NCBI GenBank assembly: GCA_964016885.1 | Contig: OZ024742.1 | Span: 193,750,001-193,814,000 of the forward strand | Origin: Eledone cirrhosa | Taxonomy: Eukaryota | Length of the DNA: 64,000 nucleotides | Direction: 5' to 3' | Shown: positions 16,145-52,900 of the stretch, in pieces | Layout: each line of letters opens with the position of its first letter | How positions within the stretch are numbered: the first letter of the stretch is position 1 | Notes under the pieces: generated by a model | The model's database searches: none | What the model was told of the DNA's origin: nothing | Seen by the model: only the letters and a program-made list of their open reading frames with translations | Position numbers and translations under genes: made by a program

Positions 16145-17720
16145 TTCGTTTCTGAATTTGTTTAGCAAGATTATTTATCTGAAAACGTGTGTTGGAGCCG
16201 ATATTGTTATACTTTGGGAGAGTCCTGTTGCCAATAACAAACACACGCACCAGTTGTTTCACTTCAATTTATTATAAATTAAATTTATAAATTTAGGAAT
16301 TTATAAATTTATAAATTTCCGGTTGGTTGGTTGGTTCCACAACCAGATGATTGTTCATATATTGTCAAAGTTCTTTCGTAACACATTATGTGACCTCTTC
16401 AGTGACTGGGGATTCTTTTCTTTTGTTTGTTTTTGTGCATCTCCTTTGTTCTGTCCTATGCCATCTTGTTGTTGTAAAAGGAAAAGTCAGTGATGCATCA
16501 ATTTATTGTGTGTTACAGTTGTTTCGCCGGCAGACAGCTCGAGACACAATCATTGTATGGATCTGTCTGATTCTGGACCTGCATGTTCGTCGGACACTTG
16601 CAATAATTTCGAATCAAATTTTCTCACTGAGGTGTTAACGTCAAAAAACATATTCCTCGCTCGTCCTGCTTTTGGCTGTTGTGTTTCTACGTCATCATAA
16701 ATTCTGGCCAATAGTTGTGTCAAACTTGCCATCCCTCCGCCTGACATACTTTAATGAATCCATGCTGGATTTGGTATTTCACAAGTCCACTCTCGCACTC
16801 ACATACACACTACACACACACACATGGAATGGATGCATAAGTGGAATATACCAACGGCTTGTGTTGTAGGCATGTATATAGCAACGGCAGGGAAAGTTAA
16901 ATTAACTGCCGCATTAATCTTAAATCCAGCATCAAGTCCAACATCGAAGCTGCAAATTAAACATCAAGAATCGAAAATTAAAAATTAAATATAAAAAGTT
17001 AAAATTCAAATTCAAAACCACATATAAGGTTGAAAACAAAATCAGACTTATATTGAGTCAGCGTACCCAAGTTGGTGGGACGGTGTTATCCAAGGTACGT
17101 TACGAGGTAGGTATCGTTGGATCTGCTGTTAATTTCAGCTTGTTCCGCCTTGCATTCATTGGTAAGCTGCGGCATGTCGGGGTCCACTGCATACGCCCAC
17201 CTGGCAATGTCGTACCGGTAGTGCCTTGGATAGACCCATACGGTATCTCTAAAGCGGAGAGCGTGCATTTACGCTGGTGTCTGCAGGCGATGATGATTAC
17301 AGATTTGAGGTTGACTGCGTCACCCTTTAGTTTTACTATCTCCATAGCTTCGGACAGGCACAACATGCACCTCATCTCGCTAGCTGAGTACGCATTCGCG
17401 TGCAGGATAATACTCCAGCTGAGGTCAAACGCCCCGCCACTGTCTTTGAGTCCCCATATTAGGTCCGCCAGTCTGGTGGAGTGTCTCTTGCTCCTATCAT
17501 TGAACGAGTTCTTGTTGTACATCCTCGATTTAAAAGTCGTGGATGTTGCCCCGATGTAGGTGTGCCTATCATTGTGCGTGGTAACCACACATCTGTAGAC
17601 AACGCCCTTTGTCAGGCACATTCCCTGCAGAAGGCACTGCTCACCTACACTGCAGTTACATGTCCGTGCATTAATTTTGTCATTCCCTTTATGTAGGCCT
17701 GACGTCTTATTGGGGTCCAG
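16145..17720 (-). mobile_element. 5'-truncated Naiad-like PLE: GIY-YIG ORF end plus 3' pLTR with two HHRs
   Basis: CLTKGVVYRC..YIGATSTTFKSR..CMLCLSE..CRH; HHRs at 16510-16597 (gtgt-CCGACGA..GAAAC-aact-GTA-acac) and 16364-16406 (gtca-CTGAAGA..GAAAG-aa-CTT-tgac). Confidence 0.88.
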
Positions 17721-17742
17721 TGATATATATATATATATGTGT

Positions 17743-17789
<47 letters not shown>

Positions 17790-17794
<5 letters not shown>

Positions 17795-18395
17795 CAAGTG
17801 GAAGCTTAGTAAAATCGAAGCTTTAGCAGTGGCCAAGGTAACGACCTTCAATTAGGAATGACCAGCAAAGCACTCAATAAGGTTACAGGCCTTAGAGTAA
17901 TGACAGACGTTTAGACTGCTTGACAAATTGAAAATTGCTTTAGGTAAACCTAGCCACACAATACGCAAAACATCAACAAAAACTAATCAGGTTATGCAGC
18001 TGACCTGGACAAATCGAACGATATTTTGCAATACGTCCGATAGGTTTCTATGAAACCCGAAATCATCCATCCAACTTACGTAATATGTAAACTTTTGGTA
18101 TTCTATGATCGAACGGTGGATCACGTCATCAACAGGAATTTCGTTCTGTGGCTCAAGTCGGTGTGGAATGCAACGCCAAACTGCTACCGTTGGCAGTCCT
18201 CAGTGTTTCACTCTCACGTGTTATTTCCAACAAGGGAAGTAAATCCCGGTTTTTGGCGGGCGGATTCAAAATGTGAACAATGGAAATCAATTCCGTTCCA
18301 CATTTGAATGAAAAGATCGCGACTAGACATTATTAAACAAACATAAATAATTAATTAATCAATGGAATTTTCTAATTAAATTAATCAATTAATTA
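17790..18395 (-). mobile_element. Monomer of the ~610 bp non-coding HHR family (see 39391-40858); HHR at 18004-18136
   Basis: Shares cccgccaaaaaccggg..cccttgttggaaataacacgtg; cctg-TTGATGA..GAAAC..GTC-cagg. Confidence 0.8.
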
Positions 18396-18574: not shown

Positions 18575-21437
18575 TAAGTTTATGAAACGGAAATGTGGGT
18601 ATAAAGAATTTATTAGGTAACAATTGTTTCTATAGTGTATGGGTTACCTATACCTCGCTATTTGAATAATATAAAAATATTATCATAAACCGAAGGTAGA
18701 CTGCAAGCAAACACACCATGTCGTCAGACCTTTGTATTGGTATGATATGAAAATATTTTATACACTAGATAAAAGAGAAAGAAGGAGGTAGGAAGAGGGA
18801 AGTGAGTAAGGGGGAGGGAGTCCTAGGATTTAAGACTGTCAGACTAGTAGAGATTGTAAGGAGAGAATGTTTTGGCAGCAGTTAGCTTAATGAGGCGTGT
18901 TAGGGTTGGCGGGGGAGGTAAATTCTTCTAGTGGTGTTGTTCGGACAAAATTTAGTTAAAGGGGTCAAAGTGGTACAGAGTTACAGACAAGATATTGGGG
19001 CTATTATAGTAGCAGGTTATTTCTAAAGGGGTCCAGAAAACAGTGTTTAGTACTATTATTATAGAAAGCCATATCTTGTGTATAAACATATAAAAACAGA
19101 AATTTGCAAACGGTGGTGTAAAAAGGTAACATTATATGCATTTAAAAATAGAAAAAGTCGTTTTCAAACGATGGTTACAGTATAGTGAACGTTGAATTTT
19201 GCTGTTCAAAAGTTTGTTTACCGGCGTTAATATGCAGTATATCTCCAAATTGCATAATTTACAGAATCGATGATTTTGCTATAAGCAGGCGCAGCTTCAA
19301 TAATTTTCCAATCAAGGGAGAATGCTTGATTGCTCCTCCGGAGCTGCCAGGCTTTATCGGCGAGGGTTGTTACGGAGCGCATTTTCTCGTGCCTGATCGA
19401 AGATCGATGTTGGTATAGCCGAGCTTTGAAAGAAGTTGCGGTACATCCGACGTAATACCATTTGTTGCTTCCGGAATTTATTGTACATCGGTAGACAATA
19501 TTGCGTGCTAGGCACTGGTTATTCAGTGGGCACGTACCTGGTTTGGTGCAGTTACAATTATTTTTATGTTTTGCAGTATTATCCTGGATAGTTTGGTGGG
19601 GTTGTAGTTGCGTGTTAGTGCGTTGTATGTTGCTATGCTGGTGCGCTGAGTCATTAGGGATGTACTTATTTAGTATTGCTGAGTTGAGTTGTTTATTTAG
19701 TTGTTCTATGTTTGGTGCAGTGGAGTATAAGAGTCTAATGGTGCGCGAGTTAAAGATTTTATAGTATTTATGTGAAGTTGTAAAGTGTTTATTGATTAGT
19801 GTATAGAATTGTGAGATAATCTTAGTGCTAATAGAAGTATTGTACACGGGATTATACCATATGTACTCTCTACCTCTGACTCTATTTGCTGGTTTGCACC
19901 TATTAGTATGCCTATTGATGTGTGTGTGTGGTGCAATACCAGTTCGACTTAGATGTGTTTTATTCATAGTACTTATGTGGTTATCGTCTAGATATTCTAT
20001 TTTCTCGCAGTAACCAGATTTTCTAAGTGCGTCATTATAATATTCAGCATGCTCGTTGAAGGTCTGCAAATTAGACGACAGTCGGGAGATCCTTATGGAT
20101 ATATTTTTAGGGATAGATTTAATAATGGAATGGGGATGGTTCGATTTTACATTAACGTACTTGAGATTTTCATTAAGTTTGTGAAATGGCTCTATATTAC
20201 CGTTATTAAGGTTGAAGGCGACATCCAAGAATTTGACCACCTTAAGATTGTGTTCGAAGGTAATATTAAGCCCTAGTTCTAAGAAAAGTTTCCTAATGTT
20301 TTTACGTCGACTTTCTAGGTTTTGTTTGTTCATATTCTTGACTAATAGAAGTGTATCGTCGCGGTATATTCCGCCGTGGAGGTCCGTAAATTCGCTCTGG
20401 AGTCTGTGGGCTATATAGATCCCAACCAGATCCGTGACCTCCGCTGAATCATTAGAACCCATCGTAATGTCGAATTCCGAGGTCTATCTCCGCGGACCCA
20501 ATAACTATTTTCAAAATGCACTACTGTGCGTCTAGCTTCAAGTATAATATTAATTTCCTCGTTTGTGAGGTCCGAGTTAGTCTTAGCGAAAGAGAGGGCC
20601 TTATGCAGGGTCTCGGGTGAAATAGAGGAATAGTATTCATCTATATCGAATTGAATAAAAGAAGATTTGTTTTTGTCCCTAATGTTATTGAACCATCTTA
20701 TTGCCTGTTGAGTATTACCCCATAATTTAATATCTTCCTTAGCCTTAACTTGGGAGATAATACGATTTAATATGTACTTACTGATTCTACCTATATCGGA
20801 CTTTGAAGGACATATTAATCTAATTTTAGGGTTAGTATCGAAGTTATCCTTATGGTCCTTCAGATTAAAAGTCGGTGTAGCTGGAGATGGGGTTTGAAAA
20901 CGACTTTTTCTTTTTTTAAATGCATATAATGTTACCTTTTTACACCACCGTTTGCAAATTTCTGTTTTATATGTTTATACACAAGATATGGCTTTCTATA
21001 ATAATAGTACTAAACACTGTTTTCTGGACCCCTTTAGAAATAACCTGCTACTATAATAGCCCCAATAACTTGTCTGTAACTCTGTACCACTTTGACCCCT
21101 TTAACTAAATTTTGTCCGAACAACACCACTAGAAGAATGTACTCCCCCGCCAACCCTAACACGCCACATTAAGCTAACTGCTGCCAAAACATTCTCTCCT
21201 TACAATCTCTACTCGTCTGACAGTCTTAAATCCTAGGACTCCCTCCCCATTACTCACTTCCCTCTTCCCCGTCTCTTCCTACCTCCTTCTTTCTCTTTTA
21301 TCTAGTGTATAAAATATTTTCATATCATACCAATACAAAGGTCTGACGACATGGTGTGTTTGCTTGCAGCCTACCTTCGGTTTATGAAATATTTTTATAT
21401 TATTCAAATAGCGAGGTATAGGTAACCCATACACTAT
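18575..21437 (-). mobile_element. Naiad-like PLE (RT plus GIY-YIG, ORF 19227-20462 with upstream frameshifted part) bracketed by ~540 bp inverted pLTRs
   Basis: MGSNDSAE, IYRDD, FLDV, WYNP, CNC..CPLNNQC, YYVG; 18627-19168 is the reverse complement of 20893-21437; HHR at 18615-18731. Confidence 0.93.
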
Positions 21438-24400: not shown

Positions 24401-25237
24401 AGGGAAACGCATCGACGTTCTCGGGGAGACCCTGGGCGTCGAAGACGATCAGCTGTTCGCTCTCTTCAAGAGGACTTTCAGACCGCAGCCTACGGACAAC
24501 TTCCAGAAATACCTGGTCTGGTAGTGCTACCGGGAGCCTTGCCGGTTCGGGATAAACTCTACAGGCACGGAGGTACTGTCAGCCGAGCTTGTCCAAGATA
24601 CACTCAGGGCGACGAAACTATCCTGCACGCACTCGTTCAGTGCCGGAGTATTGCTGACTTGTGGAGCTATGTCGAACAGCTGCTGTTGCGTGTAGGATAT
24701 ATCCGGTTATCGACTCAGTCGATTGTGCAGATAGCCCCACCATCCTCCTTTAAAGAGGAGGAAGGACAGGCAGTTTTCATCTGCCTGGTGGCGATGGCGA
24801 AAGAGATTGTGTGGTGGACAAGAATGAAAGGGTTGAAGCCGAACACTTTCCTCTCCGGCCAATACATTATTAACTTTTTCAAGTTTCATTTGAAGAGGAA
24901 AATCAGGGTGGAGAGGCAAGTGCTGTCTTCTAGTAAGTTTGTTGAAAGGTGGGTGAATGTGACGCGTCTGGTCCGAGTGAACGGGCCCGCTCTGAGTATG
25001 AGCCAGGCTAAGGAGTGAGAAAACTGAGAGAGGGCGATTGACCCTCGGAGGTTTACCCCCTTTTTGGGGAATTTTTGTTGTTTGAATATTTTGGATTTCT
25101 AGCCCGATTTTGTTATAACCACTTTACACGACCACAACCCATTTTGTATCGTCCTGTACTGTTCTGCGCCGTCTCTAATGTTTTTCTTCATGTTAGCCCT
25201 TGTAGCCAATAAAGAAACCATTATTATTATTATTATT
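21438..25237 (+). mobile_element. Tx1/L1-clade LINE copy B (5'-truncated, frameshifted, internal deletion), (ATT)n tail
   Basis: GDWNG, SYLDR, TDHK; DQCKSFDRFDH, YVDD; CPR..ETILHALVQC; AATAAA then (ATT)n. Confidence 0.92.
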
Positions 25238-25667: not shown

Positions 25668-28600
25668 GGTGACCTACGTAGTAAATCGTATCATCGTGAG
25701 CTCCGCAAAGGTTTGTTATTTTCAGTTGTTTAAAATTACCATTTATGGAAAATGTTTATTGTTAACTGTATATAAGCGCACATACATTGATTTCTGAAAG
25801 GGACACTCAAACATATTGGGGCCTTGAGCCCAAAATTTAAACTTTTTATAATTATCAAACAAAACAAATTTCTTTGAAAAATCATGGAAGACTCAGAGTC
25901 ACTAGTTCCTCACAAACTAACACGTCACACCGACACCACCATTGTAAATATTACTACGTTTGCCAGCACTAAACATATAAACAGTAGCAATATTTTAAAT
26001 TTGTCTCAGCCAGACATTCATTTCCCGCCATTACCAATGACTGCAGGTTTTAAAGCTGCCACCACCACCACCACCACAGCGACAACAAAACAAAATAGAA
26101 AAATAAATTAAATCGTGATATCGAAATGAATTCAACCATAATGAACTCTTCCACACCGAACACCACTGACGGCACCACCACCACAACTGAAACTAAAATT
26201 AACAATAACAAAAATAACGATAACAACAACAGCAACAAGGAAATTTAGAAAACTACCCTGAGTTTTGCCAGAGTAACAAAAACGTGCGAAGCGATCCAGG
26301 TAACTCAGGAGGAATTAGAAGAAACCAAAAGAATGGTAAAGAAAGATGGGTACAGGGTCAGCCTCACCTCCCCACCTAATAAAATGGAGCATCGTCGCCT
26401 ATGCACAGTGTCTTACCGGACAATTAACATAAAATCGCGCCGAGTGGAACGAGCATCCGTGGACAGGTGTGGACAAAAAAACACACATCAGACGTGGACA
26501 GAAATATGGAACCGTGGACGTGTTCTTTGAAACACCACAGGAGGCCAGAGAACACTCCATGGCCCCATTAAGAAGTGACGACTTCACACACGTCCCAAGC
26601 TATTGTGGCCAGAGACTTGTGAAGATCAGGGTGACCCACGTTCCATATGCCATCGAAATTACCCGGCTAATGGCTGCCGTCCTCGCCGGCATCGAGGCCA
26701 ACACCAAGATAATCGAAATAGCGAAATAAAAGAAGGAGAACAGGTCCGGATCTGGGATGGAGCTCCTGATCCAAGCGGACCATAAAAGCATTGAGGAGAT
26801 CCCTGAGGTAATAGATCTCACTGACCGCAGCCACCTCACCGTAATCTTCGAGGGCAGAAGGGCTAGGTTTGTCGTTTGTGGTGAAGGAACCCACCTAAGG
26901 GCTTTCTGCCCTCAGGCTAAAAGGTTGAGGACACCTCTCTTACCCACACCAGTGTCTCAACCATCAACACCACCAGCAGCAGAAATGGCAGCAACAATTG
27001 TAACAGCAACAACAGAAGAAACTGTAACAGCAACAACCCCAGCAACAATAGCAAAACCAACATCACCACCACCCAACGCGCCAGAACTGGCACTAGCGCC
27101 TACATAATCCACCACGCCACAACCAAAACCAACGCCCGTGGATGATTTTGCACTCCCCGGCTTATCGCAACTGGAGACAGATTGTGACGACTAGGAGTGG
27201 CAATCGGTATCAGGAAAAAAAAAAAGAAACCAAAAAAGAAAAAATTCTCTTCCTTCCCCCTCCAAAAACAAAATACAGAGGGGAACAAATAAATTATCAA
27301 ACTAAAAAGTTAGGACAGATATGCCACCATCCACACCAGCATCACCAACCCCATCACCACAAACACCAACACCATCACCATCATTAAACCCAACACCACC
27401 ATCACCAACAACACAAAAGTCACCAAAAGGCGTAACAGAAACAAAACCACAACAAACGCAATAAAACAAAACAACCAAAACGATACACACTACACAGCAT
27501 TTAAGGGGTCGATAAAATAAAGTACCAGTAATGCACTGGTTAATTGCTGGACTTGTGCCTAAAGTAGAAACAATTAAATTTGAACAACAAACAATGATTA
27601 CACTACATGCAACACAACACCAGCATCACAGAAAAAGACTACACAACAACCCAAAAGTTCACACCACCTCCGCACATACAAATCACTCGCATCACACAGA
27701 AAACGTACACGACACTGAAACAAAAATTCCCCAAAGACATCGGAGACTTCCGACAAACACTCTCCAGGAGGATTTATAAGGACATCGTTCCGGAGGAGGC
27801 CACAAGCAGTGAAAAGGATGGACACACCATCCCTCCTCTACGAGAAGTAAAGTAAGTGGTCTTTCCCATCTTTTCCACTCCATTTCAACATGACCTCACT
27901 CAGAATAGGCAGCATAAATACGCGTGGCTTGGGGTTGTCACGGAAGCAGGGCCACCTGCACAACGACCTCAGGTTACTAAACATAGATGTAGTGGCCATC
28001 AGCGAGACCAGAATCTCCGAAGCACGGGCCTTCGCACCGATCTTCGGCGGCTACGATGTGTACGCATCTCCCAGCCGTCCGGGATCGCGGTGAGGAGTTG
28101 CTGTGCTTTTTCGGAGAGGTTTGGAGACGTCATACGGGCCATCTTCCTGGACCCCGAAGGTAAGTTGGTGTTGCTAGACGTGACCAGCGGAGACGGGCAA
28201 GCTTTCAGGCTAGTGGCCGTCTATGCCCCGACAGGAGCAGGGCGGCTTGATTTCTTCCGGCATCTGGAGACCTTTCTTGGAACGTCCCGCTCTTTAGTGT
28301 TAGTGCCCGCTGGGACTGTGTGGGATTAGCGGAGAGGGGAGGAGGGTGCAAGAGCCTCACCAACCTGCTCAGGCGTTTTTAACTGTCTGACAGGTACCGA
28401 TTTCATTTCCCGAATGTGCCAATGTGGACTTGACAAATCGCATAGGGTCATCCAGATTATATCTAGATAGAGTATTTTGTAGGGAAATAGTTAGGTCTAG
28501 CATAGGTTGTCCACAATTCAAGATAGTCAGCTACACGGACCACAAATTCGTGATCTGTCTGCTTAAATTAGATAGGCTTCATAGACGAGGACCCACCTAC

Positions 28601-31495
28601 TGGAAGCTAAACGTGTCCTTACCAGCGCGCAAGGCCTACAGAGACCGGATTAGCGAACTAGTTAAGCGGGCGCTGACGGGGGCTATCGTCAACAACATGT
28701 GGTGGTTTGCTCTGAAAGAGCAATTAGAATATAGTCCATTAGGTTTAGTAAGGCTTTAGCAATAGAGAAAAATAGAGCAGAGGGAGAATTAGTTAGAAAA
28801 TTAGACGAGGCGCTTAGCAAAGGCATCGCGACCAACGTACTTACGGCGAAGTTGGCCCTTTTAACAATCCTCAATGAAAACACGGAGGCTGCGTTGTCAG
28901 AGCTAGGTGCATGCTCTCAGACACGAGGGGACGAAAGCCGTTCAATGGGCCCGAGTGGCGGAGACGCGTCGTGGCAACAAAGCCACGATCGGGTCTTTGG
29001 TGGACCACGACGGGCGCATGCTACTCCATCCCGGGCAAATGTGTGAAGCTTTTCAGCGACACTTCGATCAGCTGTTCGGGGGCAGCGGCGGGCCGGATCG
29101 AGGGATGGACTTTAGTGTCTACCTCGACGGACGCCGCGGCTCTCGGCCACTGAGGCGGAGTGTTCCCAAAAGCCGATAACTGCCGCTGAAGTACGGGAGG
29201 CAATGACTGGCTGCCCAAGGGGTAAATCGCCTGGTTTGGATGGTCTGCCCTATGAATTTTACGTACAGATGCCAGACTTGTTCGGAGGCTTCTTGGCGGA
29301 CGTCTACTGCAACTGGCAACAGAGCGGGAGAATTCCCAGCTCTGTGAGCCGAGGAGCTGTGGCGCTGTTGAGAAATGTTAGGCCCATAACTCTGCTAAAC
29401 ACAGAGTTCAAGATTTTGGCCAAGCTGCTAGCAAGTGGTTGGCGCTTGTAGTTGTTGGTCTGGTGGGAGAGGGGCAGACATGCGCCATTCCCGAGAGATC
29501 CATCCACGACAACCTCCACCTCATGCGATACATCGTAGAGAGGGTAGCTAGGGAACCTGACACGGGTGGGTCCTTGATCAATTTAGATCAGTCGAAATCT
29601 TTCGATAGGGTCGACCATCGTTACCTAGCTGCAGTCCTGAGAGCGGCTGGCTTTGACCCGTCTTCAGAGGCTGGATCGTTTCCATGCACAGCGTAACCTG
29701 CTCTGTGGTGAGAGTGAACGGTCACCTTTCGGAACAGTTCAACATCATGCGCTCGGTCCGCCAAGGATGTCGCCTCTCGTCCCTCTTGTACGTATTGACT
29801 CTCGAGCCATTACTGTACAAACTGAAGACGTTGAGGGGGGTCCCGCGAGAACTAGGATGCGGAATATCCGTGTCAGCATATGCGGACGATGTCCCCGTAG
29901 TGGTGTCGAACGCCAAACACATCGAGACGATCGGCACTACACTAAGGGAATACGAAGCGGTGACAGGAGCAATGATCAACCAGGAAAGGTCAGTGGGCCT
30001 GCAGCTCGGCACCTGGAGAAGCAGGTCCATGCCATCCAACAGCGTCGTCGGGCGCTGGGCGGACGGACCGGTTAAATTGCTCGGGGTCTGGTTCGATCCG
30101 GATCTCCGGACGGACAAAAACTGGGACGAGGTGACGAGCAGGGTGGCTTCTCTCACCCAGAAATGGGCCGAGAGGAAACTATCCCTGAAAGGTCGAGCGG
30201 AGGTGGCTAACGCCTATATCGCGTCCGTCATCTACTACTGCCTGACCGACGTACATTGTCCTAAGCCCCCGCCTGACTGCGCTGGAGCGTTTGCTGTTTG
30301 GCATTTTGTAGAAGGGACGCGCTCCGATGGTCAGGCGGTCCATCTGCTGTCAACACCCGCTACGTGGAGGGCTGGGATTACCGTGGCTGATGTTACGCAG
30401 ACACACGCTCAGGCTACAACATCTCCACCTCTTCCTCGACGGTGATCAGGTGTGGTCGCCGTTTTCTAGATGCGTCTTTCCCCTGCTCGTCTCCTTGACG
30501 GAGCTGCAGTCCTGGGTCAAGCAAAGACCGAGAGGGAGCGCTTGGAGACTGGAATGTCTTCAGGCGCTCACAGCCCTCGACCAATCGGGCAATGTGATCG
30601 GTGGAAACTCCACCTTAGCGTTCTATATAGGATTAGTGGGCGAGAAGAGCGACGACGTACTTGGGGAAACTCTAGGCGTCGACGAAAATCAACTAGCCAA
30701 TCTCTTCAGAAGAACTTTCGGGTCGGGGCCAATGGACAACTTCCAGAAATCCCTGGCATGGCATTGCTACCGAGGAGCTTTGCCAGTTCGGGATAAACTC
30801 TACAGTCATGGAGGTGCCGTCTGCCGGGCATGTCCGAGATGCGTGCAGGGCGACGAAACCATCCTGCACGCACTCGTCCAGTGTCCGAGCATTGCTGACT
30901 TGTGGGTTTATGTCGAACACCTGCTGTCGCGTGTGGGACGGATCCAGCTATCAGCTGAGTCCATCGTGAGGATTTCCACGCCCTCTTCCTTTAGCCGGGA
31001 AGGGCAGGCAGTTTTTATCTGTATGGTGGCCATGGCGAAAGAGATAGTATGGTGGATACGTTTAAAAGGGCTGAAGATGAGCACTTACCTCTTCCGTGAT
31101 GCCCTGATTAACTTTTTTTAATTTAATTTGAAAAGGAAAATCAGGGTAGAAAGGGAAGTGTTCTCTTCCCAGCATTTTGTTGAAAGATGGGTGAGAGAGG
31201 CAAGAATGGTCCGAGTGTGTCTGAGTATGTGTCTGAGTATGTGTATGTAAATTAAAGGTTGGAAACTGGGAGAGGGCTGTTGGTCAGGATCACTGTGGCT
31301 TTTTAATGGGCTTTCTCCACGAATGTCCCTCGGAAGTCTCCTCCTTATTGAGGTATTTTTTCATTGTTCTATTACATCCTCTGTTTCTTGTTTTTTACAC
31401 GCAGAAATGCACATTTTTTACCGTCCCGTATTGTCATGTACTGTCCTGAATGTCTACTTTATGTAAACCCCTGTGGTTAATAAAGAAAGCATTAC

Positions 31496-31579: not shown

Positions 31580-34500
31580 ATAAGAATATTTATATTTATA
31601 TATGTTTGATATAACTATAAATATCTATGCTTGTAATAAGTATTAGCCGGTTACCGGTATGACAAAAGGCCCAATGCAAATGTTCAAGTGTTTTACAGAG
31701 CCGAGATACAAAGTGTTAAAATGATGAAATTTTAGTTTAGATCATTTATTAGCTGACAATTGTTTCTTCCGGAGGGAAATCTGGATTCATCGGAGTATAA
31801 GGAATGTCGAAACATGTAACTAGTATCTTAGTCATTTAGAACAATTAGGGTACATAATTTTTATTAGTGTCAAAGACATCATGTGGAGAGTCAGGAGTTA
31901 AAAAGATCTTCTGCTTGAAGAACACAATTTCAGGCTGCACTGGTTGGAAGTGTAATAGGTATAATTAAAATGTACAAGCAAAAAAATCACAGGCAAAACG
32001 AAGACAGGCAAAAAAGTTATAATAATGGAAAATTCGTGTACAATGCAGGAGTCAATACAGTCAATAAGGCATGTATGAGGAAAATTTATAATGCAGTTGA
32101 AATAAACATATTTTGTGTGGGGTGTTAAAGCATGTTATAATTGTTATAAATGTTTAAGATAGTGTGCAATTTGTTAGAGAGGCATGTGGTGATAATGTGG
32201 GTATTTTTTTATGTAAGGTGTAATGCAAAGCACTAGACAGAGTTGGGTATGGGATGTTTATTTAAGTGTTTTTGTGTTGTAGTTCATATTTATGTGCATG
32301 TGTTGTTTGTTACACACAGCTATTAACGATGGGATTATTTTAAGTCGTTCATAGTCAGTAGGTGTTCGTTTGTTAAATGTAAATTCCTCCGAATTACTGG
32401 CCATGTTGTTATTGTACGTATATTATCTTATTAATTTGTTATCAACAAATTATCTTTTCTAGGGTTTGTATTAACCGTTATTAAGTTGTTGGTGAACCAT
32501 TAGGTTGCTTAATTTTATAGGTTTACACAGGAAGTTGTAAAGGGAGTTAATAACAAACGGTGGTAATTAAGGTTGTTGATAAATTAAGGGTTGTTATAAT
32601 ATTGTGGTGGTGTTATACATTTATCTATATAGAGTATATAAAATATAAAATATTCTTGGTTATATAATTCTTATATTTTCAACCGGTGTGGAGGAGGTTA
32701 AATACATTTTTTAATTTCGTTTATTATAACTAGATAGTTTTACATAGTTAGTATATGCATGTATAATCATTGGGTGTTTATTCGGGTGTCTATATTATTT
32801 AAATCTTTTAATAGTAAAAGGTAAGGGATCAAACAGGGGTTTATTGATTTTATGTAGGTCAGTGTGGTCTTTTAATTAAGGTGTAGTCCTATATTCATGA
32901 GGGTCTAGTTGGATAAATGACTGTCTAGTTGGATAAATTACAAGGTGGTGGTCTAGTGTTATCTTCGACATTGGTCTTTATTTTTATCTTTATTATTATT
33001 ATTATTAGTTACTAGGTTTGACGTAGTGGAACGAGAATCTATGGTAATGCGGACACGGGTAGACGATCTCTGATTTCCTATTTAGTAGGCTAAGGTCAGA
33101 GTGAATAATATTTTTAGACTCGAGGATGCAACAGTTACAAAATGTGTTAGGTGGTCTATATGAAGGGGCCTTAGCTATCACTTCCCATTTTAAGGTGTAT
33201 GGTATATTACTTGATTTTAATGAGTGTATGTATGTGGATAGTGAGTTTACTTTGCTAAGTTTAGGGTTTCTGAACGAATGGAGGTGTGAATTATATCTGG
33301 TCTTCAAGCTATTCGATGTAGAACCTATATATACTTTCGAGATGTGATTGGCGGTTACAGTACCGGAGTAGACAATGTCTTTAATTAGGCAGTTCTTATT
33401 TAATGGACATCTCTTGTTAGGCCTACAGTTACAATTGTTTTGTTTACTAGTATACTGGTTAAGGGAGTATGCATTTGAGTGGTTGTTTGTGTTTCTACTT
33501 CTAGTATTATGATTATGGTGAGTGTTATTACTATTTGTATTATTAGTGTGATTTGCTGTATGGTCTTGTACTGTGTTGTTGCTCAGGTTATTTCTATGCT
33601 GGACATTAATACTTTGGTGTAATTTGAAGTATGTTTCAGTCTTTCTCTTGTTGGTGCTGGCTATATCGTCTGCTATGTTAGGTGTGGTGGAGTAGGATAT
33701 TTTAATTGTGTTTGTGTTAAATAGATTGTGGTATATATGGTTAGTTGGGAAGTCTTTGTCTAGAGTAGAGAATAAAACTTTAGGTATGTTTGTTGATACA
33801 TTTAAGTTGAACAGAGGGTTAAAAAATGTGCTACTTCTTCTTCTATTCTTCTTATGGTTGTTATTCATACTACTGTTTAGTGTGGTGTTAGGTTCCTTCT
33901 TAACTATATTTTTCTTTCTGTGGTGTTTCTGAGGGTTATTGCTGTGGTGTGATATAAACCTTTATACAGGAGTCTAGATTTTCAATACTATGATCATATT
34001 TACCTTATTCATGGCCATGTTGTGTGAAATTATATTAGGTTGACTATGGATGATTGACGATTTAAATTTAATGTTATCTCTCTCTGGCCGGAACTGGCTA
34101 AGGCTTCATTATAGTATTGGGAGTTACGATTAAATGTATTCTCGTTGTAAGAAATGCTAGAGATTCTATTAGATACTCCTTTAATGATTGAGGAAGTCAG
34201 TACAGATTTAGGGTGGTTAGAGTTGGTATTAACATAGAAAAGTCTTTCATTAGGTTTATGATAAGGTGTGTATTTTTTAGAGTCGAAGTAGAGAGTGACG
34301 CCCAGGAAGTTAACATTTTTGGTGTTTTTATCTAAAGTGATACCAAAGTTATAGTTTTTAAATATTTTATGTAATTGTTTTCTAGTTTTTTTCTATATTG
34401 AACTTTTTATAGTCTAAGACGGAGAGTGCGTCCTCTCGACAGAGGCCACCATTGAGGTAAGGTGGGTTCTTGGGTATTTCGTTTAAGAGAAATAAACCGA

Positions 34501-35759
34501 CTAAGTCGGTTACCTGTGCCGAGTCACTAGATCCCATGGTGATATCGAAGTTGTTGGGTCTATTCTTGCGGGTCCATAATTGGTCTTCAAATTTAATTAT
34601 TGTTTTCCTGGCCGCAAGGATTATATCTACCTGGGATCTAGTGAGTTCACTATTGTTCACGGCCATTATTAATGCTTTATTTAGGAGGATAGGTGAGATA
34701 GAAGTGTAGTAGGAGTTTATATCAAGTTGGATGAATTTCTTGTTATTATTTTCTTTAATACCATTAAACCATTCGATTATTTCACTAGTGTTTCCCCAGA
34801 GGTTAAAATGGATTTTTTTTTAATTTGGGGGATTACCTTATCTAAGATTTTTTTTTATTAATGATACCAATGTCGGATCTGGATGGGAAAATAAGTCTAA
34901 TTGAGGGATTAGTATTGAAGTCATCCTTATGGTCTTTCAGAGCGAATCGTAGGGGATTAGGGGTGTACGGTTGAGTATATCCCCCTACTCCTATTTTACA
35001 TATTAACCTACGGGCTTCAATATTTATGTCATCCAGGTTTTTATGTGATGTTCTTTTGTAGTTCCTATAAAGTTCTTTATATATAAATTCTCTATATGTA
35101 TCGTAATCAGGGCTATATATATGTTTTTAGTTTATCAGCTAGTACTAATATATTCTTATTGTTATTAAAGTTTTTTATGGTGGAATTTAGGTTATTTAGG
35201 ATGTCGTTCTTCTTATTGTAGTATTTCTTGTCCCTAATCCTTTTAATAAGTGACACAAGGTCGTTTTCAAATGAGTCCAGTAAGATATTGTGTGGAGCGA
35301 TTTTATATGTTTTGAATCCGTATATTTCAAGTGAAGGTGCATCTTGTTTTTTTGTAGCGCGGTTCCTATCGTAGAAGGCCTTCCATCTAACTCTTTTGAT
35401 AAAATACTTGACACTATTAATCAATAGTTTTTCGTATGTATCCCTAAATGCATTATAACTTTTTTGCCTGTGTTCTTTTTGCTTGTGATTTTCTTGCTTG
35501 TGAATTTTAATTATACATATTACACTTCCAGCCAGTGCTGCCTGAAATTGTGTTCTTTCAAGCAGAACATCTTTTTAACACCTGATTCTCCACATGATGT
35601 CTTTGGCACTAATAACAATTATGTACCCTAAATGTTCTAAATGACTAGGATTTTAGTTACATGTTTCGACATTGCTTATGCTCCGATGATTCCAGACTTC
35701 CCTCTAAAAGAAACAATAGACAAAATGTTCTAAACTAAAATTTGATCGTTTTAACACTT

Positions 35760-38905: not shown

Positions 38906-38947
<42 letters not shown>

Positions 38948-39022
38948 TAATAATAAATTTGAAGACTAAAATCCAAAGAAGGCTCGATATATATATGTAT
39001 GTGTATATATATATATATATAC

Positions 39023-39089
<67 letters not shown>

Positions 39090-39185
39090 ATATATATATA
39101 TAGTAATAATAATAAATTTGAAGACTAAAATCCAAAGAGGGCTCGATATATATATATGTATGTGTATATATATATATACATATAT

Positions 39186-39268
<83 letters not shown>

Positions 39269-39390
39269 AGTGTATATATATATGTATATATACATATTAC
39301 ATATATATATATTTGTATGTAAATATATATATACATATTATATATATATAATATGTGTGTATATATATATATATATGTATATACATATAC

Positions 39391-40853
39391 TGATATTTGA
39401 TTTCGGATTCATAGAAACACTTTAAACGTATAACGTTTGATTTGTCCAGGTGTATTTTTTCACAACCGGTTAGTTCTTTCGTTACTTTGGTATTGTGTGT
39501 TAGATTTTGCCTACCACAATGTTCAAATTGTCAAGCTATTTAAACGTATGTTATTACTCTAAGGACCTACTTTGTCGAGGGCTTTGCTAACTCATTCATA
39601 TAGTAGGTCGAATTTGCTTGCTCACCGCCAAAATTTCAATTTTACTAAGCCTCCAATTATATTATTTTCTCCTAGATTTAATAACTAACTAATTAATTTA
39701 ATTAGACAATTTTGTTGATTGGTTAATTATTTGTGTTTCTTTAATAACATCTGGTCGAGAGCTTATTCTGAATATTAGCGGAAATTATAATATTTCCTTT
39801 GTCTAACATTTTGAATGACCCGCCAAAAACCGGGGTTTATTTCCCTTGTTGGAAATAACACGTGACAACCAAATGTTCGATTCGCTGCTGCTAGTTGTAA
39901 CATTGGGTATCTCGCCCCGTTCTTTGGTAGAACGAAATCCTGTTGATGAAATGAATCCTCTGTTCGATCATGAATACCACGGGCCTGCCAGTTACGTAAG
40001 TCTGATATTTGATTTCGGATTCGTAGAAACATTTTAAACGTATAACGTTTGATTTGTCCAGGTGTATTTTTTCTCAACCTGTTAGTTCTTTCGTTACTTT
40101 GGTATTGTGTGTTAGATTTTGCCTGCCACAATGTTCAATTTGTCAATCTATTTAAACGTATGTTATTAGTCTAAGGACCTACCTTGTCGAGTGCTTTTCT
40201 AACTCATTCATATAGTAGGTCGAATTTGCTTGCACACGCCAAAGATTCGATTTTATTAAGCCTCAATTATATTATTTTCTCCTAGATTTAATAATTAACT
40301 AATTAATTTAATGATACAATTCTGTTGATTGGTTAATTATTTGTGTTTCTTTAATAACATCTGATCGAGAGCTTATTCTGAATATTAGCGGAAATTATAA
40401 TATTTCCTTTGTCTAACACTTTGAATGACCCGCCAAAAACCGGGGGTTATTTCCCTTGTTGGAAATGACACGTGACAACTAAATGTTCTATTCACTGCTG
40501 CTAGTTGCAACATTTGGTATTTCGCCGCGTTCTTTGGTAGAACGAAATCCTGGTGATGAAATGAATCCCCTGTTCGATCCTAAATACCACGAGCCTGCCA
40601 GTTACGTAAGTCTGATATTTGATTTCAGATTCATAGAAACACTTTAAACGTATAACGTTTGATTTGTCCAAGTGTATTTTTTCTCAACCTGTTCTTTCGT
40701 TACTTTGGTATTGTGTGTCAGATTTTGCCTGCCACAATGTTCAAATTGTCAAGCTATTTAAGGACCTACCTTGTCGAGTGCTTTCCTAACTCATTCATAT
40801 CGTAGGTCGAATTTGCTTGCATCCTGCCAAAGATTCGATTTTACTAAGCCTAC

Positions 40854-40858
<5 letters not shown>
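39391..40858 (+). repeat. ~2.4 tandem copies of a ~610 bp non-coding unit, one HHR per unit (39939-40062, 40549-40672)
   Basis: tgatatttgatttc at 39391, 40003 and 40613; flanked by (TA)n. Confidence 0.9.
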
Positions 40859-40899
<41 letters not shown>

Positions 40900-41199: not shown

Positions 41200-41446
41200 A
41201 GAATGAATAATAACAGGTAGACATCATAAACAGGTAATTTATTCTGTGTGCTTACAAATGTTTCCACGGTGGTTATACAGCCTAGTTATGTTATGTGCAA
41301 ATTTATAACTATTTGCAAAAGTCAATTATCAAATGCTGTGACCACTGAATCCTCAGAGCAGAATGGTTAAAATGTAAAATGTAAATACCCTTAAGTGAAG
41401 TTATTGGGGAAGATAGAGTACAAAAAGAAGAGAGAAAAGAATGGGA

Positions 41447-41477
<31 letters not shown>

Positions 41478-44028
41478 GGGTTAGAGACATAGGAGGGAGT
41501 GGTTTGTAGAATACAGATATCTTAATCAAAATGTTGAGGTAGGGGTTTTATTATACTGGTTACTCTTAAAGCGACCACCTTAGCGATGCGTTGATAGTCA
41601 AGGTTGAAATTATTTATTGCCACAGAGGGCAGGTTCATAGATGTGGAGAGGGAGGGAGGTGGACCGAGGACGAGAGAGAGAGAGACAGGGGGATGGAGAG
41701 AGAGGGAGAGATAGAGAGGGGACAGAAGAAAGCTATGGGATGGGTGTACATTAAGTTCATAGTTGTAGTCTTCAAATTGCACTAAGTTTCCATTTATAGT
41801 GATAAGCAGGGTATTGTCTTGTAGTATAGGGGAATAGAAAGTGGTTAGCTAGAAAGCAATGTTATAGTTACGGGTTCGAATGTTAAGTTATTTTATAATG
41901 AGATAATTTAGCCTTCAGTTTGTGGTTGCAATATAATGATCGTTCGATTCTATCATTTAGTAATTTACTTTTGGATTTTAAGATGTAAAAGAGTTCAAAG
42001 TTACATAACCCACAGTACTTCAATCAACTCCGATATGCACTAGCGCTGGAAAGTATATCCCATTTCAAGGTGAACTGTTGGTTGCATTTACGGAGTTCCC
42101 AGGTCTTGTTGGCGAGCGTGGTCACAAAACGGTGTTTATGATGTTTAATTGAGAATCGAGGACGATACCAGCGAGATTTAAAGGAGGTAGTGGTAGACCC
42201 GATGTAATACCATTTCTGGTCGGTCGATTCAACAGTGAATTGGTAAACAATGTTGGACTTTAGGCATTTATTCTTCAATGGACATCTTTCAGGTAGGTGG
42301 CAGTTACAGTTTTTATTGTGGGTAGCAGGGTATACCATGGATATTTTGGGATAGCAGTACATGTGGGTTGTGTAATACCCGTCTCCCATTTAGTGGTTGG
42401 GAGGCCGATACTACGTTATGCTCAACTGTTATTAAAATATTTTGTTTTGTAGTGTTGTTTTTTCATGTATGCTTCAAGGTTTGGTGCCGTGGAGTATGAT
42501 AGTTTAATAGTTTTAGAGTTCAGAATGTTACTGTGTTTATGGGAACTAGGGAAATGCTTGTTGATTAACTGAAAGAATGAAAGAGATAGTTTTGTACTAA
42601 TCGAAGCATTAAACATGAGATTATACCAGATATACTTTCTACAACGTGATTTATTTGGTGATGATTTTCTATTATTAGTATGTCTGGTGGTACTGCGTGT
42701 ATGCGCTTGTATTTCTGTACCCCGGTTACGTATTCTTCGATTTCGTGTAGAGCTATGTGTGTTATGGAGATTCTTATCAATGTATTCTATTGTATCCCGG
42801 TGTTCGGCATTCCTTAATGCATTATTATAAAATAAAGTACCAGTAATGCACTGACTAATTTCTGGCCTTGTGCCTAAAGTAGAAACATTTATAATAGTAT
42901 TCAGCATGTTCACTGAAAATAAGACGATAGGCGAGAGATTCTAAGAGAAATACTACGGGGAACCGATTTGATCATGGAAAGTGGGTGGTTTGAGTTAAAA
43001 TTGATATAGGTAAGGTTCTCATTTACCTCGCGGAAGGGTCGTATCAGTCCGGTATTTAAATTAAGAGTTACGTCTAAAAAATGTACTACTTTAAGATTGT
43101 ATTCGTACGTTATATTTTGACCCAGTTCACTAAAAGATTTTCTAATGTTTTCCGTAGCCTTTCACGATTTTGGTTATTTAAGTTATTAACTAAAAAGAGC
43201 CCGTCATCTCTATACATTCCCCCCTGTAGATGACTAAATTTACCATGTAGTATGTGGGCTATGTAAATTCCCACAAGATCGGTGACCTCCGCTGAGTCGT
43301 TGGAGCCCATGGTAATGTCGAAGTTTGTGGGTCTGTCCTTACGTTCCCAGTAGCAGTTATCAAACTTGATAATAGTTTTTCTAGTCTCTAGAGTAATATA
43401 AATTTCTTCCTCCGTTAGGTCGGAATTGACTTTAGCAAACGATATGGCCTTAGGTAAAGTGCCGGGTGAGATTGAAGAGTAGTATTCGTCTATGTCAAAT
43501 TGTATAAACTTAGATTTATTCTTGTGCTTAACGTTATTAAACCAGCGAATTGCATCGCTAGTGTTGCCCCATAATTTAATTTCTATTTTCTTTTTCAATT
43601 GAGTTATTACTCTGTCAAGTATATTTTGCTAATGTTTCCTATGTCTGATTTAGAAGGGCATATAAGTCTAATCTTAGGGTTAGAGTCAAAATTTACCTTA
43701 TGGTCCTTCAGGTTAAAGGTGGGGGTTGCGGGTATAATCGGCTCGGTTATATCGTCTATCTTCAGATTATTCACCACCTTGTATGCATTGTTGTTAATAC
43801 TTGCTAGCGTAGTTTCACTTGTTTTCCTATATTTCTTGCGTAGTTCTTTGTGTATGAAGTTGTTGTACGTATCGATATCCATGGTATACACGTTAGAGGT
43901 CTTGTCAGCTTTCACAACAATTCCATTGGTATTTTGCAGTCTTCGCAGTAGTGCTTTCATGTTGCTCTGCAGCTCATTACTTCTATGTTTGGTAAAGTTA
44001 ATATTCATGGTCCTATTCATTAAGTCTT
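41200..44028 (-). mobile_element. Naiad-like PLE, decayed RT plus GIY-YIG; 3' HHR at 41249-41360
   Basis: VKADKT, FDIDEYY, MGSNDSAE, MYRDDGL, CNC..CPLKNKC, YYIG; tgct-CTGAGGA-long stem II-GAAAC-attt-GTA-agca. Confidence 0.92.
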
Positions 44029-44029
44029 G

Positions 44030-44061
<32 letters not shown>

Positions 44062-44064
44062 GTA

Positions 44065-44382
44065 TAAAGAAAACAAAAAATCAGAGATGCATCTGAACTT
44101 AATTTATTGCGTTTTACAATTGTTTCGCCGGCAGATAGCTCGAGACATGGTCCTTGTATGGATCTGGCTGATTCTACGGCTGCAGGTTCTTTCAGATACA
44201 GGTATTTCGTTCGGGGCAAATTTTATCACTCCCAAAGAAATACACGTGCCTGAAAGAACCTGCAGCCGTAGAATCAGCCAGATACAGACAGGAACCATGG
44301 CTCGAGCTACCTGCCGGCGAAACCATTGTAACACGCAATAAATTAAGTCCAGATGCATCACTGATTTTTCGTTTTCTTTATT
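44065..44382. repeat. Head-to-head inverted pair of an HHR-containing pLTR segment
   Basis: The two arms are reverse complements and homologous to 16490-16600; core CTGAAAGA..GAAAC-(a/c)att-GTA. Confidence 0.85.
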
Positions 44383-49939: not shown

Positions 49940-52900
49940 TATATATAAGGAAAAAGATGGAATCGAAAATGCAACTGCAGTCTTCTTAAGGATATTTATT
50001 TGTTTCCTTTACCGATTTCACAGTTCTTTTGCCTTTCAAAAGTAGAATTGAGATGGAGTGTTTGAGGTTTTTCTCACATCTGGTTGGTGTTTGAATGCTA
50101 CTTCCGTTTTATATGGAAAAAAGTGGCTCGAAATACTAGGTTTTTAGCGAAGTAAATTGGTTGGTTGATGAATGTCATGTGAATAAGTATAATAAATTTC
50201 GCGCCAGTTCGCTTTACAAAGTTTTTATTATATTTGCCTTTAAAAAAAAATGGGTGGGGTCTAAGATTGTTTTTTCACATATGATTGAAGTTTGGTTGGT
50301 TGATACAGTCACGTTAATAAGCATATCAGCTTTCGCGCCAGTTGGTGTTTGAATTTCTTGTTACTTTAAAAAAAGTGGCTCACGAAGGCTTTTTTTATAA
50401 ATGTACAACTACATTAAATTTCGCGCACGTATTTTAGAATTTTTTGTAGCAATTTAGAGAATTTTGGGCCAAACAAAAGATAATGGTCAAAATGACTATT
50501 ATCTTTTGTTTGGCACAAACGGGATGGGGAGAATTGTTCTGGTTCAGTGAATATGGCTGGTGTACTGGGCTGTCAAAATTCAGACTTTCTATTGAAATAA
50601 AGAAAGTAGAGCTATGTATGTTTATTTGTGTGGTGGTGGTGGTGGTGGTTGTGGTGGTGGTGGTGGTGGTGGTGTGTCTGTGTGTGTATGTAGGAAGATG
50701 ATTCTATTAGGAGAAATGAGGGAGGGAATTGTGTGTGTGTGTATGGGTGTTATATGTGTGTGTATGGGTGTTATATGTGTGTGTGTGGGGGGGAGTATGG
50801 TTAGCATGTTAAGATGGAGAGAATCTATATATATATTGTGTGTGTGTAGGAAAATGATTCCGTTAGTAGAAATGAGGGAGGGAGTTATGTGTGTGTAGGG
50901 GTGGGGTTAGTATGTTAAGGTGTTGGAGTATTAACGTATGTTAAGGTTTATTTAGCTCTGTTTTTTTTATTTTCGAAAATAGGTGTTATGTGTGTGTATG
51001 TATGTGTCTGTTTGCATGGTTAGCCTGTTATGGTGTTGACATAATGTATATTAAACTATATTTAATGCTGGTCTATATTTTTGAATAAACATATTTTCCT
51101 TATTTATTTGTATTTATTCTGTTGTATTGTCAGCGCAAAGATATAATGGGAAGACTTTGAATTTGGGTGTCTTATTATTTGCGCATATGTCTAGATGTGC
51201 ACTGGCTGGTTTCTGTCTTGTAATTGTTGGCGATGAATTATCATTCTGTTTCTGAGTATGAGTTTAATTTGTCCTATGTAATCTTCATTGAATCCTTTAC
51301 ATTTAATGGCATAAAGTATATTTTTTGATGAGCAAGTGAAGGGATTTTTTACAGCAAAATTTTTTCTTGATTGAAATGTATACATGTTGCCTTCAATGAG
51401 GTGAGTGCAGGTTCCACAATAGAGCGACCACATTGTTTGACAGTTGGTTGTGGGTTTGTGGTAGCTAATTTGGCATTGCTGAGTAATGTTTTTAGTGATT
51501 TCGGTTGTATTTTGCTTTTGATTATTTTGTGGTTTCAGGTTTTTTTTTCATTCTTTGGTCTTATTTCAATAGTGGGATGTGTCTTGTGAATAATGTTCTA
51601 AGCTTCCGCATTTCTTGGGTTGTGTGTTGAGATATATGATAAAATATAAATAAATATATGATAACATATTGTACATTGAATTTGTTTCTGTTTTCGTAAT
51701 TCATCAATGCCTATTGCTTTAGCCATTTCTATTCCATTATTTATTAGTAATGGTGGGTACTGTCTTTCGAGCAGAATTTGCTTTAATTCTCAAAAGACTT
51801 CAAGAATTAAAATAAATTCTGCTCGAAAGACAGTACCCACCATTACTAATAAATAATTGTTTCTAATTTTGGCACAAGGCCAGCAATTACCCAGTGTATT
51901 TCTGATAAAATAAAGTACCAGTAGTACTGGGTAATTGCTGGCCTTGTGCCAAAAGTAGAAACAATTATTTATTAGTAATGGTGGGAATTTCCTTTAATAC
52001 TTGAAGTCTTTTATTGCGCGTTTCATAATTGGAGACAATTGTGCAAATTCTTCTTGCTAGGTTAAAAACGGTGTTCGTCTTCGTGTGCTTTGGATAGTTG
52101 GAGGTGAATAGCAGATATTGTTTGGAATCTGTTGGTTTGTAATGTATGTCAGTTTCAATATGTGTGTCTTTTTTATGATTAAGATGTCCAGAAATGGGAG
52201 TTGGTCTTCGCTGTATTCCATTATGAATTGAATTTGGTTAATGATGCCGTTAATTAACATTTTGAAATCATTTAGCTGGTCGAGTGTGTGAGACCAAAGA
52301 ATGAGACAATCATCCAAGTAGCGTTTCCAATTCTCTGATAAATATTTGTGGATGTTCAATCCGTATTTTGATTTGGACTGTTCATAGATCTGGACTTCCA
52401 AGTATGCCATGACTAAGTTGGTATAAGTTGGAGCGACCTTTGTATCCATCGCAGTCCGCGATATTTGCTTGTAAGTACTGCCATCGAAATAAAAAAAGTT
52501 GTTCTGTGTAATAAATTTTAATCACGCGGTGATGAAGCTTTTTTCTATTCTGTCAGCTATCTCATTTGGATATTTCTCGAGCCAGAATCCTTTTGCTTCT
52601 AGTCCGTGTTGGTGTGGGATCGTTGAAACACAATAATAGTGTCGTTTTTTTCATGTTTGGGGAGGTGGTTTAAGAGGTCCAGATCGTCTCTTACAAGGCT
52701 TGGTATGTGTATTAGAATTGGTTTTATTAGTATGTCTATAAAGTTGCTTAGTCTGTGTGTTTCACATTGTGTGCCCGCTACAATTGGACTTAATTTAAGG
52801 TGTGTGGGGGAATTGTATGTTCACGCAGGTTGAGGTGGATTGTGTACAGGCCTCGTTAATTATTTTACACTTGTGGATCTTCGGAAGTCTGTCAAGGTTG

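Follow-up and report, generated by a model that had tools for sequence, protein, structure and literature searches.

A non-coding tandem repeat of Eledone cirrhosa, probably a non-autonomous Penelope-like retrozyme with a variant hammerhead motif

How does a non-coding repeat that carries a hammerhead-like motif spread, and does the motif cut RNA in the cell? We addressed this question for a repeat in a 64,000-nucleotide stretch of Eledone cirrhosa DNA (the window, from contig OZ024742.1) and for its copies in the sampled genome, which measures 3.0 Gb and is rich in microsatellites.

Anatomy, ends and target of the repeat

The original prediction described about 2.4 tandem units of approximately 610 bp and a diverged monomer on the minus strand. 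Both were found directly. The array at 39390-40859 (+) consists of one partial and two full units (39390-39660, 39661-40270, and 40271-40859) with 91.5% identity at a one-unit offset, and the monomer at 17795-18395 (-) is 67-71% identical to the array units. The predicted series cctg-TTGATGA...GAAAC...GTC-cagg was read at 39939-40062 (+) and 18136-18004 (-), and the second full unit does carry GTGATGA, together with CAAG in stem I. Because of these two changes in the last unit, and because the 5' half of the core is absent from the first unit, the array contains one intact hammerhead. The features of the two loci are as follows.

38908..39389 (no strand): (TA)n target microsatellite on the 5' side of the array
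39390..40859 (+): insertion of the non-coding element, a partial tandem of subfamily A, ending at the fixed 3' end of the family
39390-39660 (+): 5'-truncated first unit of the array
39414..39450 (+): remaining 3' half of a hammerhead, from the truncated first unit, whose core has lost its 5' half
39661-40270 (+): full unit holding the intact hammerhead
39930..39934 (+): GAACG of the leader, which would form the 5' strand of a predicted pseudoknot with 39961-39965
39939..40062 (+): intact predicted type I hammerhead variant of the middle unit
39939-42/40059-62 (+): stem I of this hammerhead, CCTG / CAGG
39943-39949 (+): core TTGATGA, with U3 at 39943 and G8 at 39948 (CCTG TTGATGA is 39939-39949)
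39950 and 40025 (+): extra A after A9 and extra A before GAAA, respectively
39951-58/40017-24 (+): stem II basal helix, 8 bp
39961..39965 (+): TGTTC, predicted 3' strand of the pseudoknot, directly past the stem II basal helix
40026-29 (+): GAAA (GAAAC is 40026-40030; stem III runs to 40057)
40056-40062 (+): GTC/CAGG, with predicted cleavage after C 40058
40271-40859 (+): last full unit of the array, with a 21-nt deletion
40549..40672 (+): decayed hammerhead of the last unit, with G3, stem I 3' strand CAAG (40669-40672), and no hammerhead fold
40857..40899 (no strand): (TA)n target microsatellite on the 3' side of the array
17795..18395 (-): almost complete subfamily B monomer, sharing the 3' end of the array and about 20 nt short at its 5' end
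18004..18136 (-): predicted hammerhead of the monomer, with U3.G8, an extra C after A9, and one stem II base lost

Exact matches to the 3'-end motifs numbered at least 1,858 for the clade of the window loci and at least 5,065 for a sister clade, with 0 in the controls; these are counts of units, not of insertions. DNA searches with the two window types were scored for the best 40 of 3,341 and the best 40 of 3,422 candidates. Subfamilies B, A0, A, and C were defined from 150 units and D and E from two further searches, and the six consensuses are 58-91% alike. As predicted, the repeat is non-coding: no sense-strand open reading frame (ORF) longer than 64 codons occurs in the four consensuses tested. 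The repeat belongs to a non-coding superfamily of two clades and thousands of copies.

Both window loci are embedded in (TA)n and stop at the same unit position (40859-40861 and 17792-17801); only their starts differ. By reading, 53/60 core-selected loci end at the unit end, the other 7 being broken or inverted or truncated at the edge of the locus. A sample of 87 insertions was then taken from the first 100 of the 1,858 3'-motif matches listed, with tandems merged and one duplicate dropped; L204 was left out as a duplicate flank of L203. (TA)n lies directly 3' of the unit end in 76/87 of these insertions and at the 5' junction in 63/87. Inverted 5' pieces were seen at loci L022, L068, L075, L076, and L166. 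Run-on into the next unit at the 3' end occurred in 8/87 insertions, and L243 alone was seen to stop after approximately 25 nt, the described 3' tail of Penelope-like elements (PLEs) being 30-40 bp.

Described PLE insertions show 5' truncation, partial tandems, and inversions, and the Hydra clade targets (TA)n (PMC8557442). The repeat has the traits of a non-autonomous PLE, namely, a fixed 3' end, 5' truncation, partial tandems, and 5' inversions, and its junctions show the (TA)n target of Hydra, Neptune, and Naiad elements. Its fixed 3' end also fits the fixed internal start sites of reverse transcription shown for a Poseidon PLE (PMC11167929). The combination of fixed 3' and variable 5' ends is the Penelope insertion pattern rather than random circular permutation. 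Consequently, the staggered starts noted originally are real, but the two loci share one end, and the conclusion drawn from them, a circular template, fails as stated, the 5' stagger being ordinary truncation. Fixed ends common to all copies had been named as evidence against the prediction; the 3' end is indeed fixed, whereas the 5' ends vary.

A circular monomer RNA copied by rolling reverse transcription could still be the main template. Private departures from the consensus are shared at 52% within an array (24 pairs) versus 9% between loci (3,133 pairs), and in three arrays the units are nearly identical. This difference implies that arrays arose by repeated copying of one template or were homogenized later, and a circular or concatemeric template is possible. 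Circles have been shown for other animal retrozymes (PMC7229834), and a fixed internal start on a circle would likewise yield a fixed 3' end. However, truncation accounts for the staggered starts, 66/87 insertions are shorter than one unit, and shared mutations are also expected from template re-jumping, local duplication, or conversion. We regard circles as an unlikely main template.

Conservation of the variant hammerhead

In the minimum free energy (MFE) structures of the window copy and of consensuses A, C, and D, three helices surround the core, which is open at stem I. The unconstrained MFE structure of the intact window copy has the hammerhead topology, with an unremarkable z-score of -1.25 and an MFE frequency of 0.009; z-scores of the consensuses are weak (-0.8 to -2.9). 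Since the fold energy is unremarkable, support for the hammerhead rests on conservation and covariation, both of which were observed directly. In the six consensuses, 22/22 core and stem I columns are invariant compared with 232/525 ungapped columns overall, and variability in the core is confined to N7, which takes all four bases, position 8, and the extra base after A9. The naive chance of this invariance (0.44^22, approximately 1e-8) is inflated because the columns are linked and because the patterns that led to C, D, and E already included part of the core. U4, G5, A6, A9, G12, A13, A14, the A15.1-U16.1 pair, and H17 are invariant, as in a type I hammerhead core.

We aligned 26 motifs; L335 was left out because its stem III could not be parsed reliably. 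Paired bases fill 92% of the cells, compared with 26-49% in slid structures, and both sides have changed in 5/8 stem II pairs. The covariation score was 0.249 versus 0.156 for shuffled alignments (0/500), a control that related sequences inflate. The original suggestion of selection on the hammerhead structure is supported by these data, and the absence of covariation, which it had put forward as grounds for rejection, was not what we found.

The repeat might instead be a neutral satellite or the remnant of a DNA transposon, with a hammerhead-like motif that is decayed or resembles a ribozyme by chance. Its non-canonical core and weak folding z-scores would fit such an origin, as would Rfam, in which no hammerhead or other ribozyme was found among the 82 window matches at E<=1, these being microsatellite artefacts. 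Against this, subfamilies as little as 58% identical have the same invariant core, stem II shows compensatory changes, the copies are dispersed and have a fixed 3' end, and the 5' ends form the step described below. These observations largely refute it already, and we consider it very improbable.

The hammerhead departs from the canonical form at the base of stem II. The originally predicted stem II of about 75 nt stands as the length of a region but not as a continuous helix: a basal helix of 8 bp closes an insert that is itself branched. In 35/35 parsed motifs, one additional base follows A9 and an additional A precedes G12 (of 40 new loci, 11 could not be parsed and were skipped), with G10.1-C11.1 coming next in 25/35; in none of these motifs does the 10.1-11.1 pair directly adjoin the core. 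In the monomer, stem III is longer and has a GCAA loop. The base added after A9 has a precedent in PLE hammerheads (PMC4209133). The motif is best described as a predicted, conserved variant of the type I hammerhead rather than a plain member, because it fails the canonical tests at the 3-8 pair and at the stem II base. Its new features are the nucleotides inserted on both flanks of the base of stem II, together with a candidate leader pseudoknot.

The putative pseudoknot joins GAAC in the leader to GTTC just above the stem II basal helix, both invariant in the six consensuses. A pattern built on GAAC/GTTC gave 2,770 matches versus 10 in the control and revealed the sister clade. Among the 26 motifs, the inner flanking pair is A-U in 9, G-C in 6, G.U in 2, and unpaired in 9, and the outer flanking pair is U-A in 7 and unpaired in 13/20. 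The four central pairs never vary and, for most rows, were imposed by the search pattern, so the pseudoknot is a candidate only. Pseudoknots between stems I and II occur in approximately 40% of hammerheads (PMC3088659).

At the second non-canonical point, the 3-8 pair, U3 was found in 46/46 cores of the window clade and 27/27 of the sister clade, in samples chosen by 3'-end motifs. In the window clade, position 8 is G in 36 and A in 10 of 46 cores, whereas 26 of 27 sister cores have A8. Genome-wide, 526/2,770 motifs have U3.G8, and position 8 is otherwise mostly A. By hand count, the first 100 of the 2,770 motifs listed comprise 77 U3-A8, 17 U3.G8, 3 C3.A8, 2 C3-G8, and 1 U3.C8. The canonical C3-G8 pair is thus replaced by U3.G8 or U3-A8, C3 being present in 0/73 cores selected by 3'-end motifs and in 5 of these first 100 motifs; the C3 consensus named as a refutation of the prediction was not observed. 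G8 is the consensus state of B, A0, A, and E, A8 is that of C and D, and part of the sister clade has G8. The claim of a conserved U3.G8 wobble therefore applies family-wide for U3 but only to some subfamilies for G8. The wobble is a lineage state, given that U3 is nearly fixed and G8 occurs in 526 motifs among others that are mostly A.

In a midpoint-rooted tree, G8 lies on the backbone and A8 arises four times, with two weak backbone nodes (0.41 and 0.64). An order G-C > G.U > A-U at the 3-8 pair may be inferred from this tree, whose root is unsettled and placed at the midpoint only. CpG decay was rejected as the source of U3, since position 3 precedes U, and may contribute to the change from G8 to A8 where N7 is C. 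Three related copies of a sister subfamily (L302, L314, and L327) have C3 with an A8 mismatch, possibly a step toward or away from C3-G8. The U3-A8 pair is natural in hammerheads (PMC3088659; PMC4209133), and U3 together with G8 is quoted for a rare isolate, a saltern variant that also has two inserted bases (PMC7151607). A family-level U3.G8 core was not found in the literature as far as it was accessible; the PLE variants of Lunse et al. or supplements (PMC4209133, preprint, PMC8557442 S2) may show such motifs.

The family amounts to a natural series of 3-8 core pairs in which each state is represented by thousands of copies. Its hammerhead form was missed by Rfam here and would also escape descriptors that demand CUGANGA, that limit stem II to a short length, or that expect the 10.1-11.1 pair next to the core. 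Unrelated type I hammerheads were observed in the flanks of other loci (L078:1069, L104:3183, L152, L207, L284, L313, L352, and L391). Their stem II regions span 26-83 nt, most of them have a base added on either side where stem II meets the core, and their stem III loops are short and in many cases palindromic. Hammerheads with a long stem II seem to be general in this genome.

5' ends of insertions at the predicted cleavage site

If the hammerhead cuts RNA before it is copied, the cut should leave a mark on the 5' ends of insertions. In the window clade, 21/68 copies that reach the 32 nt past the predicted site start there, compared with a fraction of 0.053 per bin elsewhere (p 3e-11), and 1/47 5' ends fall in the 32 nt upstream. 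The pattern was replicated in the sister clade, for which 67 insertions were taken from the first matches listed of 5,065: 16/46 start in the 32 nt past the site versus 0.064 (p 1e-8), and 2/30 upstream. On recount, 7/23 second units start in the 32 nt past the site; the p values of 0.003 against upstream and 0.09 against downstream bins were both computed with an overstated denominator of 31. The pile-up was 12/28 in A0, 4/12 in B, 3/11 in C, and 2/17 in A, the subfamily of the window array, where it is weak. Subfamilies with U3.G8 together gave 18/57, and the U3-A8 subfamily C gave 3/11. Short copies were assigned to subfamilies from their 3' part, and 5'-end positions are uncertain by approximately 10 nt owing to TA microhomology. 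The ends scatter from +1 to +32, with few exactly at 0 and three lying 4-7 nt upstream (L213, L235, and L347). A milder rise occurs near another, 5' hairpin (5/30 and 4/18 in the two clades). AT content was rejected as the cause, because bins that are equally or more AT-rich show no excess.

The pile-up is itself a direct observation, and it is likely the footprint of cleavage in vivo at the predicted site. Run-off from cleaved RNA is the best account of its sharp upstream edge, the rivals being stalling and a promoter. In this alternative, the element is the same, and the pile-up would come from reverse transcriptase stalling at the folded hammerhead or from transcription starting just downstream, the motif being kept as a protein-binding or structural signal. 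The spread of ends over 30 nt instead of a single base, the reappearance of the step in the second unit, the smaller rise near another hairpin, and a core that departs twice from the canonical form are in its favor. In addition, a Poseidon PLE could do without hammerhead activity in vitro: mutants had no effect on insertion, and no RNA-seq ends were reported at the site (PMC11167929). However, stalling predicts ends inside stems III and II, and the upstream 32 nt hold only 1/47 and 2/30; the invariant and free positions also fit catalytic needs (N7 free, a purine at 8 pairing with U3, and C17). We therefore judge stalling or a promoter to be improbable. The pile-up bears on the circular template as well: reverse transcription of a circle would meet no end at the cleavage site, whereas 5' ends are concentrated there in both passes.

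The reading that we favor, and hold to be likely, is that the repeat is a non-autonomous Penelope-like retrozyme, mobilized by Hydra PLEs, whose conserved variant hammerhead cleaves a fraction of its RNAs in vivo. A partial tandem would be transcribed through more than one unit. A PLE endonuclease would nick (TA)n, and reverse transcription would start at a fixed internal site of the RNA, yielding the fixed 3' end. The hammerhead would cut approximately 30% of sites. On a cut RNA, the reverse transcriptase would then reach the end of its template some 210 nt after starting, whereas an uncut multimer or circle would let it proceed into the next unit. The weak core, in which U3.G8 or U3-A8 is combined with a base added on either side where stem II begins, would be braced by a leader pseudoknot of 4-6 bp, which would stand in for the usual contact between loops I and II. 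Incomplete cleavage would suit the element, because only copies longer than one unit can reproduce.

A narrower claim, to which we give slightly less than even odds, is that a U3.G8 lineage has persisted over several subfamily generations and, braced by the leader pseudoknot, cleaves in vivo about as frequently as its U3-A8 sisters (approximately 30% of sites), setting the 5' ends of the copies made by PLEs. If this were true, insertion ends would be a genome-scale read-out of ribozyme activity, since cleavage would set the 5' end of PLE-copied RNAs; there would be a natural G-C > G.U > A-U path through a catalytic core; and a large class of long-stem-II PLE hammerheads would have been overlooked by current descriptors. 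The 5'-end step at the predicted site, seen in two clades, is a cheap test for any PLE or retrozyme family. Among the papers listed by literature searches, no title or abstract opening contained a report of an insertion 5'-end step at a hammerhead site.

Probable mobilizer and relation to known systems

Hydra-clade PLEs that target (TA)n are the likely mobilizer of the repeat, a partner inferred from the target, the end pattern, and the form of the hammerhead. The window contains an example of this likely kind of mobilizer, which may or may not be the partner itself.

18575..20974 (-): coding PLE with Hydra-clade motifs (reverse transcriptase, CxCX5C linker, and GIY-YIG)
18615..18731 (-): hammerhead in the 3' UTR of this PLE, with C3-G8, an extra C after A9, and an extra A before GAAA

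The hammerhead at 18615..18731 has an 88-nt stem II region, a short palindromic stem III, and U17, and the extra A is present in 20/20 copies of this coding neighbor. [quoted passage not shown] Neptune identity was rejected because the motifs fit Hydra. An autonomous PLE carrying the unit was not found directly upstream in the same orientation at the loci examined by tblastn with two window PLE proteins, and similarity between the unit start and the tandem junction of one Hydra family was not significant (p 0.06-0.96).

The repeat resembles the metazoan non-LTR retrozymes of Cervera and de la Pena (2020, PMC7229834) in its tandem units, which are non-coding and carry a single type I hammerhead apiece (here with a variant core), and in its dispersal as monomers and short multimers; those retrozymes have been proposed to be non-autonomous PLE derivatives. 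The length of 610 bp lies within the 51-972 bp range of retrozyme units in a preprint (Li, Clavereau and Pollet, bioRxiv 10.64898/2026.07.22.740005), and the element also works like a non-LTR retrozyme as reviewed in PMC6765202. It differs from the retrozymes described in PMC7229834 in a core with U3 and G8 or A8, the extra base before G12, a 75-nt branched stem II, a stable long stem III, (TA)n targeting, and a fixed 3' end, and it is known here from DNA alone.

The hammerheads of PLE pLTRs are minimal, with a tiny palindromic stem III, and fold as dimers (Cervera and de la Pena 2014, PMC4209133), whereas the repeat has a long, monomer-competent stem III, the extra A before G12, and whole subfamilies with U3.G8. 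With Hydra-clade PLEs (Craig et al. 2021, PMC8557442) it shares truncated 5' ends, inversions, and partial tandems as well as (TA)n as its target, and with the Hydra-type coding PLE hammerheads of the window it shares the two extra bases and the long stem II. In contrast to these PLEs, it has no ORF, and it shows no significant sequence link to the one coding family compared. Craig et al. call Hydra hammerheads canonical and the role of hammerheads in PLEs unclear. Stem I-II pseudoknots and natural U3-A8 pairs in hammerheads (Perreault et al. 2011, PMC3088659) are parallels, although the pseudoknot predicted here joins the 5' leader to the junction above the 8-bp stem II. Compared with the saltern U3.G8 isolate (PMC7151607), U3.G8 is here the consensus of several amplifying subfamilies, with at least 526 motifs.

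Further observations concern the surroundings. The family of the PLE at 18575-20974 (L091-L110) is young, with 3' UTRs 96-97% identical and 1,065 candidates; it has two alternative 3' ends approximately 110 nt apart, a tail far beyond the described 30-40 bp, and one copy (L104) runs on into the ORF of the next. Two hammerhead-like sequences lie in the 3' UTRs of PLE remnants: 41246-41364 (-), with an 83-nt stem II region, belongs to the remnant at 42425-44080, and 31745-31800 (-), with CCGAUGA (C4) and a poor fold, to that at 33008-35574. A 5'-truncated GIY-YIG fragment of another Hydra-type PLE (17103-17722 (-)) shares the (TA)n tract of the monomer, around which three elements are nested head to tail in one tract. 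The consensus fold has, where the unit starts, a long hairpin that is conserved and AT-rich (unit positions approximately 17-72; window 39677-39732); it may serve as a start signal for reverse transcription or for protein binding. A perfect hairpin at 51857-51963, made of two copies of a very common short repeat in inverted orientation, recurs in many locus flanks and scores as mir-1271 in Rfam, below threshold. Finally, the window contains GC-rich degenerate non-LTR retrotransposons with endonuclease, reverse transcriptase, and zinc finger regions at 6281-9170 (-), 22328-25015 (+), and 27856-31118 (+), which we take by their motifs to be Tx1/L1-like.
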